A stretch of DNA of 32,000 bases from Acaryochloris marina MBIC11017 (GTDB lineage Bacteria > Cyanobacteriota > Cyanobacteriia > Thermosynechococcales > Thermosynechococcaceae): positions 5,700,001 through 5,732,000 of the forward strand of contig NC_009925.1 in NCBI RefSeq assembly GCF_000018105.1, written 5' to 3'. The translations under genes were made by a program, and so were the position numbers. Shown in pieces: positions 9,794 to 11,546 of the stretch. How positions within the stretch are numbered: the first letter of the stretch is position 1; each line of letters begins with the position of its first letter. Under the pieces are notes generated by a model that saw nothing but the letters and a program-made list of their open reading frames with translations, did not search any database and was not told the origin of the DNA.

Positions 9794-9852
9794 CACCTGA
9801 ACTTACCTGAATAAATCGGGATTTTATCTACCGTTTGATTTGGCGATAGTAG
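9794..9852 (+). promoter_or_regulatory. Copy B of the cis-module, upstream of acyltransferase 1
   Basis: The sequence is cACCTGAActtACCTGAAtaaatCGGGATTTTATCTaccgtttGATTTGGCGATAGTag. CTGAA starts at 9797 and 9807 and CGGGA at 9817, a 10-nt phasing. It is identical to copy C except for the 7-nt spacer. It ends 73 nt before ATG 9926. It also lies in the divergent pyrC intergenic region. Confidence 0.65.
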
Positions 9853-9925
9853 GGACATCAACGAAGCAACGACCACACAGGACAGCTTCTAAATCTTTTA
9901 ACCCAATCAATACAGGTAATCCATC

Positions 9926-10564
9926 ATGACCACTACCCCCGCAACAACTGAATTCGATCTAGAGCAAATCCAAGAAGCACCTGAAGCAGACCTCGTGATA
10001 CCCGTTGATAACGCAGCTATCCCTGAACCTATTGAAGCGACAGATGGCCATCCAGAACAAGATGCTATTACTTCAGGTTCAACTGAAGAACAAGCCCCTA
10101 CTCCTGAACAACGGGAAGAGGCTCAAGCTCAAACCTCACCAGAGGTGATGCGGCAGCGATTACAACTTTTAGGCGGCATTACTTGGTTAATGTTGCAATC
10201 TCCCCAACACTGGCATTGCACCATCGAAGAATTAGAAGCGAGAATTTTACCCAGTCTCACCCTCAACCAATTTCGTTATTACGAAGTCGGTGGTCAGCCT
10301 ATCGGATTTGTGAGTTGGGCTTACTTGTCCGATGAGGCAGAAGAGAAGTATCAAACTGGAGAATACAAGCTGCTTCCCCAAGAGTGGCGGAGTGGTGAAC
10401 GGCTTTGGTGTACCGATTTTATTTCACCTTTTGAGCATGACCAAAGTATATTTGAGGACTTGCGCCAGACGATTTTTCCCCAGGGCACAACAGCAAAAAT
10501 GATCCGCACCCAAGAAGATGGCTCTCGCTCCATCGTTGAATATCAACTGGGATCCAATGAATAA
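9926..10564 (+). CDS. HlyC/RtxC-family toxin-activating lysine acyltransferase, paralogue 1, with an acidic N-terminal extension of about 70 aa
   Basis: The core is LQLLGGITWLMLQSPQHWHCTIEELEARILPSLTLNQFRYYEVGGQPIGFVSWAYLSDEAEEKYQTGEYKLLPQEWRSGERLWCTDFISPFEH.. It aligns with E. coli HlyC as I recall it (LGHVSWLWASSPLHRNW...AYCSWANLS...DWTSGDRKWFIDWIAPFG), including the SP.H histidine. Residues 1-75 are E/P/T/Q/A-rich with no Lys. Confidence 0.85.
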   Translation: MTTTPATTEFDLEQIQEAPEADLVIPVDNAAIPEPIEATDGHPEQDAITSGSTEEQAPTPEQREEAQAQTSPEVMRQRLQLLGGITWLMLQSPQHWHCTIEELEARILPSLTLNQFRYYEVGGQPIGFVSWAYLSDEAEEKYQTGEYKLLPQEWRSGERLWCTDFISPFEHDQSIFEDLRQTIFPQGTTAKMIRTQEDGSRSIVEYQLGSNE

Positions 10565-10715
10565 GAGACATCACCCAAGCTGAAGTTGTAATAGATGCGC
10601 TTCAGACCACCCAAATTTTAAAAATTGAATGATCACCTCACTCCTGTGGAATGGTTTGACTTGCACTCAAAGCCTATTCTGCAGGACTTTCTTTTGGGTT
10701 AGAGAGATAAAGAAA

Positions 10716-10774
10716 CACCTGAACTTACCTGAATAAATCGGGATTTTATCTTCCCAGAGATTTGGCGATAGTAG
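10716..10774 (+). promoter_or_regulatory. Copy C of the cis-module, upstream of acyltransferase 2
   Basis: The sequence is cACCTGAActtACCTGAAtaaatCGGGATTTTATCTtcccagaGATTTGGCGATAGTag. CTGAA starts at 10719 and 10729 and CGGGA at 10739. It ends 71-77 nt before the start codon. Confidence 0.65.
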
Positions 10775-10845
10775 ACCCATAGACTCATAGATAACTTCTC
10801 CAGTTTCTCGTCTAGCCTTGCTTTTCCACCCCATCACTAGAGGTA

Positions 10846-11379
10846 ATGATCATGATGACTCAAGATATGCCAACAACATTCGATACCACTCCAGATCAGA
10901 TTGAGGCTCCTGAAACACCCCTATCAGCGACAGCCAGTGCAGATGATCTGCCTCAAGTCACCCCAGAAGACGTGCAACAACGGCTGCAATTGCTGGGATC
11001 AATCACTTGGTTGATGATGCAGTCTCCTCTCCATCGGTCTTACACCCTTGCAGAACTCGAAGCCCGCATCTTACCGAGCTTGATGCATGATCAATTTCGC
11101 TATTACCAAGTGGGCGGACAGCCCGTGGGATTTCTCAATTGGGCCTGGCTTTCGGAAGAGGTGGAAGCGACTTATCAAACGGGAGAATACCAACTATTAT
11201 TTCCCGAGTGGAAATGTGGTGACCGCCTTTGGTACCCCGAATTTATCGCCCCCTTCGGTCATGCTCGCCACATCGTCAAAGATATTCGCAAAAACATCTT
11301 CACCAAGGGCACCCCCGCTAAAGCGCTTCGGGTGGATGCTGATGGCAATCTGCGTTCCATCGCCAAGTACACCCTCTAA
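10846..11379 (+). CDS. HlyC/RtxC-family toxin-activating lysine acyltransferase, paralogue 2, with an acidic N-terminal extension of about 40 aa
   Basis: The core is LGSITWLMMQSPLHRSYTLAELEARILPSL..QFRYYQVGGQPVGFLNWAWLSEEVEATYQTGEYQLLFPEWKCGDRLWYPEFIAPFGHARHIVKDIRKNIF...ALRV. This is a very clear HlyC-family match, with SPLH, CGDR.W and IAPFG conserved. The start is probably ATG 10852 rather than 10846, because GAGG lies 8 nt upstream and this position is homologous to the AGGTAAT..ATG of paralogue 1. By-eye identity between the two cores is roughly 60 percent. Confidence 0.88.
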   Translation: MIMMTQDMPTTFDTTPDQIEAPETPLSATASADDLPQVTPEDVQQRLQLLGSITWLMMQSPLHRSYTLAELEARILPSLMHDQFRYYQVGGQPVGFLNWAWLSEEVEATYQTGEYQLLFPEWKCGDRLWYPEFIAPFGHARHIVKDIRKNIFTKGTPAKALRVDADGNLRSIAKYTL

Positions 11380-11419
11380 GTTTATTTGGCACTAATCATT
11401 CTATTTCTCTCAGTCAGAG

Positions 11420-11446
11420 GCCCCTGCATTGCAGGGGCTTTTTTTT
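11420..11446 (+). terminator. Rho-independent terminator after acyltransferase 2
   Basis: GCCCCTGCA / TGCAGGGGC form an inverted repeat (11420-11438). It is followed directly by T8 (11439-11446). Confidence 0.8.
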
Positions 11447-11464
11447 GATGGCCATTCGTCCTTA

Positions 11465-11546
11465 CACCTGAATTGAGGTCCTGAACATTTACCTGAATTT
11501 AACTGAATAAATCGGGATTTTTTCTACTTGGCGATTTGGCGATAGT
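11465..11546 (+). promoter_or_regulatory. Copy D (expanded) of the cis-module, upstream of the RTX gene
   Basis: The sequence is cACCTGAAttgaggtCCTGAAcatttACCTGAAtttaaCTGAAtaaatCGGGATTTTTTCTacttggcGATTTGGCGATAGTgc. CTGAA starts at 11468, 11481, 11493 and 11503 and CGGGA at 11513. It shares TGAATAAATCGGGATTTT and GATTTGGCGATAGT with copies B and C. It ends 43 nt before ATG 11590. Confidence 0.65.

Follow-up and report, generated by a model that had tools for sequence, protein, structure and literature searches.

A candidate promoter cassette repeated before the genes of an Acaryochloris RTX locus and present in distant cyanobacteria

The window analysed here is a 32-kb stretch of Acaryochloris marina MBIC11017 DNA (NC_009925.1, positions 5,700,001 to 5,732,000; coordinates below count from its first nucleotide). 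It contains an RTX locus, in which two genes for HlyC-family acyltransferases (hlyC1 and hlyC2) are followed by a gene for a long calcium-binding RTX protein; a DUF928 gene, a TPS/TPR/CHAT gene and a divergent pyrC-like gene lie upstream (Table 1). The ATG of the RTX gene is preceded by the ribosome-binding site AAGGAGAA, and the NCBIfam RTX-type repeat matches of its product were all under the family cut-offs. Homologues of hlyC2 in A. marina are 86% identical. The subject of this work is a short intergenic element, hereafter called the cassette, that stands before each of these three RTX-locus genes.

An earlier reading of the sequence (the original prediction) had described three copies of the element, one per RTX-locus gene. 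This was borne out by a repeat finder, which reported a single three-copy direct-repeat family in the window (9791-9852, 10713-10774 with 92% identity, and 11487-11548 with 79%), and by exact matches. The 19-mer CTGAATAAATCGGGATTTT (0.02 matches expected by chance) and the 14-mer GATTTGGCGATAGT (0.13) each occur exactly three times in the 32 kb, at 9807, 10729 and 11503 and at 9837, 10759 and 11533, respectively, all on the + strand. As had also been seen, copies 1 and 2 match base for base over 36 + 16 nt and differ only in a 7-nt spacer. Two details needed correction: the gap preceding GATTTGGCGATAGT is 7 nt in all three copies, rather than 7-8 nt, and the 10-nt period of the CTGAA units holds for the two proximal units, while the units of copy 3 start at 11468, 11481, 11493 and 11503, which gives spacings of 13, 12 and 10.

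A fourth, weaker copy lies outside the region of the original prediction. A position weight matrix of 57 nt, built, like the consensus given below, from copies that were partly chosen by pattern, scored the four window copies at 34-72 bits, against a maximum of 5.6 bits for the best match in 30 shuffled windows, and detected no further copy in the window. All four are intergenic and on the + strand. Copy 4 is located 33 nt 5' of a 60-aa open reading frame (ORF; 1019-1201), after which come a 64-aa ORF (1215-1409), the DUF928 gene and the TPS/CHAT gene; neither small ORF has a Pfam or NCBIfam match. Its position is shared by orthologous copies on plasmid pREC3 of A. marina (L019 4970) and in the metagenome-assembled genome (MAG) Acaryochloris bin.148 (L010 3916).

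Table 1. Coordinates of the cassette copies, genes and hairpins in the window
Feature	Position	Strand	Details
Cassette copy 4 (weaker)	897..985	+	33.7 bits
Copy 4 parts			CCTGAA 897, 920; CTGAA 932; CTGAT 942; box GATTTTTTCTGC 955-966; hexamer TAAGGT 980-985
DUF928 gene	1406-2326		upstream of hlyC genes
TPS/TPR/CHAT protein, 2092 aa	2379-8657		upstream of hlyC genes
pyrC-like amidohydrolase gene, divergent	8680-9717		upstream of hlyC1
Cassette copy 1, before hlyC1	9794..9867	+	71.9 bits
Copy 1 parts			CTGAA 9797, 9807; -35-region box GATTTTATCTAC 9820-9831; -10-like GATAGT 9845-9850
Copy 1 downstream part			conserved CATCAACGAAGC 9856-9867; predicted transcription start ~9857
hlyC1, RTX-toxin-activating lysine acyltransferase, 212 aa	9926..10564	+	Pfam HlyC, E = 7.6e-37
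Terminator-like hairpin 3' of hlyC1	10643..10695	+	hairpin 10643-10685 with 13-bp stem and ~17-nt loop, then T-rich ACTTTCTTTT
Cassette copy 2, before hlyC2	10716..10772	+	67.4 bits
Copy 2 parts			CTGAA 10719, 10729; box GATTTTATCTTC 10742-10753; GATAGT 10767-10772; predicted start ~10779
hlyC2, second HlyC-family acyltransferase, 177 aa	10846..11379	+	Pfam HlyC, E = 5.6e-39
Intrinsic terminator 3' of hlyC2	11416..11449	+	12-bp stem (11416-11442), 7 GC pairs, 3-nt loop, T-run
Cassette copy 3, before RTX gene	11465..11546	+	71.2 bits
Copy 3 parts			four CTGAA units; box GATTTTTTCTAC 11516-11527; GATAGT 11541-11546; predicted start ~11553
RTX calcium-binding repeat protein, 1401 aa	11590..15795	+	Pfam HemolysinCabind, 15 stretches, E = 1.4e-97

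A new cassette begins within 20-30 nt of the terminator-like structure that closes each acyltransferase gene. The terminator originally recognised after hlyC2 is present, and its hairpin and T-run are kept in 4 of 4 Acaryochloris-type lineages. The hairpin 3' of hlyC1 is probably a terminator too, missed by the standard scan on account of its long loop: its Alifold consensus over the four lineages is -22.3 kcal/mol (-22 to -28 kcal/mol for the individual folds), and its stem shows compensatory changes (CUGUGG/CUGCAG, CCGUGG/CUGCGG, CCUUGG/CCAAGG). Because a terminator-like hairpin closes each of them, hlyC1 and hlyC2 are taken as separate units, which agrees with the earlier suggestion that the genes are at least partly independent transcription units.

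To describe the cassette, we derived a consensus from 59 unique copies, 26 of them of Acaryochloris type and 33 metagenomic, taking the G of GATTTT as position 0. CTGAA units start at -45/-46, -35, -23 and -13 in both of these distant clades, so that the phasing noted originally is confirmed with spacings of 10, 12 and 10, i.e. two pairs of 10-bp period lying 22 bp apart. They are followed by a near-invariant box, GATTTT(T/A)TCT(G/A)C, at 0 to +11, by 13 variable bases, and by a hexamer at +25 to +30, exactly 15 nt past GATTTTWTCT. The hexamer reads nAnnnT in 56 of the 59 copies; it is GATAGT in 17/26 Acaryochloris-type copies and CATACT in 17/33 metagenome copies. The last conserved element, (C)ATCAAC at about +36 to +42, is where transcription would start. 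The bases just before the hexamer are GGC, TGG, TTC, CGC, GCC, CGA or CGG, GGG thus not being invariant, and the CGGG that precedes the box in the window varies in other lineages, the invariant part being GATTTT(A/T)TCT. An AAATC-GG-GATTT palindrome was considered as a dimer site and dropped, since its CGGG/AAATC half is replaced elsewhere by CAGG, CTAG, AGGG, TGGG, CTGG or CGAG.

With the hexamer placed at -12 to -7, the box falls at -37 to -26 and the repeats start at about -50, -60, -72 and -82. This geometry is consistent with the proposed use of GATAGT as a -10 element. It changes the place assigned to the repeats, which had been thought to stand in for the -35 box: they lie upstream of it, and a distinct element fills the -35 region. 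No TTGACA-like hexamer is found at the 17-nt spacer position, which reads TTTTAT or TTTTTT, and a consensus promoter scan reported none of the cassettes of the window.

The exact 19-mer CTGAATAAATCGGGATTTT was found at 17 loci in a scan of 185,579 representative genomes. Five are in Acaryochloris MAGs, there only in the context of this cluster, with CTGAA units beside the 19-mer and, at an unchanged distance, a GATA(G/T)T hexamer. The remaining 12 are isolated matches from unrelated phyla, around which the other cassette features are absent, as chance would give. One Acaryochloris locus (L002) has three syntenic copies, before hlyC1, hlyC2 and the RTX gene, respectively. A further lineage of Acaryochloris type (L074, GCA_020357715.1), found through HlyC2 protein homology alone, has four, the additional one standing before a PPIase gene. 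Among 72,556 plasmids searched with blastn, the cassette matched only pREC3 of A. marina MBIC10699, which carries the whole cluster in the order hypX-like gene, Mo-nitrogenase-C-terminal-domain gene, DUF928, CHAT, hlyC, hlyC, calcium-binding protein, small ORFs and PPIase. Eight copies are present in this 17-kb cluster, all on the coding strand, and none was detected by the matrix in the other ~87 kb of pREC3 that were fetched. pREC3 also encodes a sigma-70-family protein of 268 aa (L069 39125-39931), which may possibly be linked to the cassettes, and an HlyD-family adaptor (L070 41281-42867) located ~4 kb from the cluster, on the far side of the record origin, a possible type I secretion partner.

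Several individual copies deserve mention. On pREC3 (L019 11807-11900) and in L016 (2600-2500, - strand), what comes after the cassette just 3' of the CHAT gene is no ORF, only a pair of hairpins with a U-run (-30 kcal/mol); this cassette is a candidate for driving a small RNA about 55-60 nt long. The corresponding position of the window is occupied by the pyrC-like gene. In the bin.148 copy before DUF928 (L010 3900-3946), the box, spacer, hexamer and CAACAACGG are intact and unrelated sequence has taken the place of all CTGAA units, while its A. marina orthologue (L019 4970) has three such units; the truncated copy offers a natural test of the need for the repeats. On another bin.148 contig (L013, ~1150-1200, - strand), the cassette is directly followed by the hlyC1 terminator hairpin, without hlyC1, which suggests a deletion between cassette copies. 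The L002 pair orthologous to copies 1 and 2 (3587 and 4527) differ from each other and from the window pair, suggesting that gene conversion between copies 1 and 2 took place in the lineage of the window.

A metagenome scan with the pattern CTGAA-N5-CTGAA-N8-GATTTTWTCT returned 49 loci, about 33 of which carry far more of the cassette than the pattern itself. The features recovered there without having been searched for were a third CCTGAA unit, 12 nt farther 5', the GC that follows TCT, a hexamer of the form nATAnT, in most cases CATACT, exactly 15 nt past the box, and ATCAA shortly after it. The same loci have the ribosome-binding site AAGGAGAA and an ATG, mostly 26-90 nt past the hexamer. 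The genes 3' of the metagenome copies mostly encode 58-76-aa DUF4278 proteins (Pfam E down to 6.6e-16). By sequence impression only, other ORFs appeared RTX-like (761 and 882 aa), amine-oxidase-like, similar to MATE-type transporters, or related to natural-product enzymes (acyl-CoA dehydrogenase-like, adenylating enzyme, halogenase-like), and one contig (L063) has the apparent end of an ABC exporter gene and an HlyD-like gene upstream of two cassettes. RpoC1 of a cassette-bearing contig is ~90% identical to that of Geminocystis and Cyanobacterium aponinum and 87% identical to that of Xenococcaceae; the host organisms (Geminocystis/Xenococcaceae-like) are therefore far from Acaryochloris. Framing the element as a property of three RTX genes was thus too narrow, as it also precedes DUF928/CHAT, hypX-like, PPIase, DUF4278 and biosynthetic genes. 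Nor is it intrinsic to either type of locus: other cyanobacterial HlyC-RTX loci (L071-L073, L080) are devoid of it, and so are the DUF4278 genes of Xenococcus PCC 7305 and MAG P01_F01_bin.143. In one of these HlyC-RTX loci (L080 1590-1670, Cyanobacteria bacterium J06627_28), the space separating hlyC from the RTX gene holds a tandem array of about seven 13-nt repeats TTCATTCGCTCAR, which may be an unrelated repeat-based control region.

Alignment of the orthologous loci, which had been put forward as a check, came out in favour of the element. The three intergenic regions were aligned for the four Acaryochloris-type lineages (HlyC2 protein identity 67-86%), and the share of invariant columns was higher inside the module than outside for copy 1 (57% vs 9%), copy 2 (65% vs 22%) and copy 3 (46% vs 23%). 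The other conserved intergenic blocks were ribosome-binding sites and the two hairpins 3' of hlyC1 and hlyC2.

Our preferred interpretation, to which we give a probability of about 0.65 on the basis of sequence comparisons, is that the module is a self-contained, regulon-specific promoter cassette of ~90 bp that depends on an activator or on an alternative sigma factor. Its 5' part would consist of two to four CCTGAA(C/T)TT half-sites at about -82, -72, -60 and -50; GATTTT(A/T)TCT(G/A)C would occupy the -35 position in place of a TTGACA-like hexamer and be followed by the 13-nt variable spacer; (G/C/T)ATA(G/C/A)T would serve as the -10 element, with transcription starting at the CATCAA found 6-8 nt further on. 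RNA polymerase would presumably need help at such a non-canonical -35 region. Given this 12-mer and the phased half-sites, a trans-acting specificity factor would be needed: the CTGAA repeats may bind an activator that recognises direct repeats and contacts RNA polymerase from about -50 and beyond, and/or a dedicated sigma factor may read the box. The activator model is favoured because the repeats equal the box in conservation and in strictness of placement, and because the 10/12/10 spacing would be expected of dimers bound in tandem along the same face of the helix. The best candidate for the CTGAA-binding activator would be a protein of the response-regulator type. In the window, hlyC1, hlyC2, the RTX gene and DUF928/CHAT would form four transcription units, each closed by a terminator-like hairpin and re-started by its own cassette, so that one trans-acting factor could switch all of them together while their individual strengths would be set separately.

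Several points weigh against this interpretation. The use of the hexamer as a -10 element is deduced from geometry and from the A2/T6 pattern only, and GATAGT agrees with TATAAT at 4 of 6 positions. A search of the accessible literature found no start-site, expression or binding data for any copy, and no regulator gene was linked to the cassettes at any locus examined (pREC3, metagenome contigs). The apparent conservation of two CTGAA units and of the box among the metagenome copies is inflated by their selection by pattern, and the similarity of paralogous copies may in part reflect duplication or gene conversion rather than base-by-base selection. Finally, some copies (those of the hypX-like gene and DUF928 in L019) are 280-480 nt away from the next annotated gene, which implies long leaders or unannotated small ORFs.

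Among the other explanations, the closest, which overlaps the favoured one, makes a dedicated alternative sigma factor (group 3 or extracytoplasmic function (ECF)-like) the main reader of the cassette, with the box as its -35 element, (G/C)ATA(G/C)T and the preceding G/C-rich bases as its -10 element, and the CTGAA repeats as accessory (UP-like) sites or sites for a second factor. It would account for the location of the most conserved block, unlike TTGACA, exactly at -35, for a box-to-hexamer spacing that never varies, and for the persistence of box and hexamer without any CTGAA at L010 3916, which shows that the core can persist alone; the short sigma-70-family protein of pREC3, encoded ~37 kb from the cluster, also speaks for it. 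We nevertheless hold it to be rather unlikely: a near-invariant -35 element of 12 nt would be unusually long for a sigma factor, and a pure sigma model leaves the conservation and strict phasing of the CTGAA units unexplained. The sigma-28 consensus (TAAA-N15-GCCGATAA) is a misfit, the box reading TTTT for TAAA, and sigma-28-type, ECF-type and sigma-54-type spacings did not fit when compared by eye with the respective consensus sequences. The conserved GGG needed by the SigJ J-box (PMC6495340), the one cyanobacterial group-3 consensus that could be checked, is missing from the cassettes. Much less probable is that a repressor or a nucleoid-type silencer uses box and repeats as its operator array on an otherwise constitutive promoter. 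The box does overlap -35 and conservation does cross the predicted start, both typical places for operators; yet a promoter without a recognisable -35 hexamer is predicted to be weak unaided, and a position of -50 to -82 for phased sites is typical of activators.

The original prediction had offered a transcribed 5' leader as an alternative. Such an RNA element might be a riboswitch, an attenuator or a processing site, carried by transcripts that read through from, or start at, a point farther upstream. A terminator scan did flag a weak hairpin with a T-run (CCTGA-ATAAA-TCGGG-ATTTT) in copies 1 and 2, and conservation continues for ~15-20 nt beyond the hexamer. As a terminator-like structure, this hairpin was rejected, not being conserved in the metagenome clade, where 2 of its 5 pairs are kept in only 24-27% of the copies; what is conserved in strict register is the primary sequence, not the pairing. 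Copy 3 begins ~20 nt past a strong terminator and copy 2 past a terminator-like hairpin, leaving no space for an upstream promoter, and a search of 9000-12500 against Rfam (E <= 1) gave only a spurious Spot42 match on the terminator. We therefore regard a leader as very improbable. The least probable of all is a mobile or dispersed repeat, such as a miniature inverted-repeat transposable element (MITE), or a recombination site (an integron attC, for instance), lying between genes by happenstance. That several near-identical copies occur in one locus (copies 1 and 2 above all), that bin.148 has rearranged versions of the cluster (L013, lacking hlyC1) and that insertion-sequence elements flank the locus could be taken in this sense. 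Against it, the module has neither terminal inverted repeats nor target-site duplications, all copies are co-oriented with genes and none is inside one, orthologous positions are occupied in the four lineages, and the exact 19-mer is bound to the cluster in Acaryochloris MAGs, with pREC3 as the only plasmid match. The gene-proximal, intergenic, single-orientation distribution is thus not that of a scattered repeat. An integron attC-like boundary was also rejected, there being no inverted-repeat structure and gene order being conserved.

Coming back to an activator-dependent promoter cassette, its closest parallels include promoters of the OmpR/PhoB/TorR, SphR and RpaB type, where short direct repeats likewise come in pairs with a period of about one helical turn, the -35 hexamer is weak or missing, and a single factor acts on many separate transcription units; TorR-type sites are decameric repeats with a 10-bp period. 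The spacings of 10, 12 and 10 correspond to the paired ~10-11 bp repeats of OmpR/PhoB-type sites. In contrast to a pho-box, in which the proximal repeat overlaps or replaces the -35 hexamer, the repeats of the cassette end ~10 bp upstream of -35 (the proximal CTGAA is at ~-50) and a separate invariant 12-mer is found there. The repeat CCTGAA(C/T)TT matched none of the consensus sequences that could be checked, and the assignment of the regulator to the OmpR/PhoB type, made originally, is retained as an analogy. The window encodes a single response regulator, 16 kb away and beside radA, which scores as an RpaB equivalog (394 bits against a cut-off of 330). RpaB binds HLR1, with the consensus (G/T)TTACA(T/A)(T/A)NN(G/T)TTACA(T/A)(T/A) quoted in PMC11633204. 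With up to 3 mismatches allowed, this motif has 3 matches in the window, vs 7.3 expected by chance, and 0 in the modules, so RpaB/HLR1 was rejected. The best match (2 mismatches; 27204-27221, - strand) falls between radA and rpaB, shortly 5' of rpaB, and may be an autoregulatory site, although the total is not above chance.

LytTR systems (Lactobacillus plantarum pln, streptococcal com/blp, agr P2/P3) resemble the cassette in that each toxin or peptide operon has its own repeat promoter, and in gene content, with exported peptides and ABC/HlyD exporters nearby (L063; the HlyD-family adaptor of pREC3). The reverse complement AAAGTTCAG may fit the loose LytTR consensus, [TA][AC][CA]GTTN[AG][TG]; the orientation relative to transcription would be inverted, unlike in LytTR systems, and no LytTR gene was seen near any copy. 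Like those of the cassette, the repeats are centred upstream of -35, at ~-60 in the case of AgrA (PMC4227749). LytTR sites have 9-11-nt repeats separated by 11-13-nt spacers (PMC4847170). Adjacent units of the cassette are 10 or 12 nt apart from start to start (spacer of 0-2 nt), and only alternate units are 22 nt apart. The SigJ J-box of Nostoc punctiforme (GGGaAtacT) has an absolutely conserved GGG before the hexamer and a weakly conserved -35 region (PMC6495340). Like the cassette, it is a widespread cyanobacterial type with an aAtacT-like -10, an AT-rich, non-canonical -35 and cell-surface or secretion targets; unlike it, the cassette has a strongly conserved -35-region box and upstream repeats. 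Despite the similar hexamer (CATACT/GATAGT), the J-box was rejected because its defining invariant GGG is absent.

The presence of the cassette before dozens of genes in Acaryochloris and in distant marine cyanobacteria points to a co-regulated gene set, undescribed so far, which appears to lean towards small peptides and towards proteins that are secreted or located at the surface (RTX proteins with their acyltransferases, TPS/CHAT, DUF4278, and also natural-product genes). More tentatively, this may be a regulon spread over at least two distant cyanobacterial orders, in which a direct-repeat-binding activator, perhaps together with a dedicated sigma factor, would co-induce exported weapons and peptides. 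If this were true, the package would comprise acylated RTX proteins and a TPS-secreted CHAT protease, along with DUF4278 peptides, natural-product clusters and one or more small RNAs, controlled in the manner of Gram-positive bacteriocin/quorum-sensing regulons, and the cassette would be a handle to the regulator and its signal.

Literature searches for the motif strings, Acaryochloris RTX, DUF928/CHAT and CTGAA direct repeats retrieved nothing relevant. The motif therefore appears to be undescribed, though regulon-specific, factor-dependent promoters are familiar. The cyanobacterial regulons defined by a cis-element are mainly those of NtcA, RpaB/HLR1, the Pho box, LexA, Fur and the SigJ J-box, and to our knowledge almost nothing is known of the control of RTX, CHAT/TPS and DUF4278 genes in cyanobacteria. 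What is uncommon here is the length and information content of the motif, its use in 4-8 copies per 17-kb cluster instead of an operon, and its occurrence in two distant orders. The design is also unusual in that terminators set apart the two acyltransferase genes and the gene of their presumed RTX substrate, and each would be started anew by its own cassette, with no operon fusion. With ~60 informative bases and a near-zero background, the motif allows genome scans to list co-regulated genes, and it could serve as bait for DNA-affinity capture of the regulator. It may further provide a compact, apparently strong and switchable promoter part for Acaryochloris and marine unicellular cyanobacteria.

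As to the surroundings of the locus, the window lacks the PPIase gene and its cassette, which A. marina and L074 have 3' of the RTX gene. An IS630-like transposase gene, split into helix-turn-helix and DDE_3 ORFs, is found directly 3' of the RTX region (16782-18030), and two more DDE transposase genes are present at 21194-22612 and 22619-23656. The cluster of the window is at most 12 kb away from radA and rpaB, which suggests that it is chromosomal, while that of A. marina MBIC10699 is plasmid-borne.

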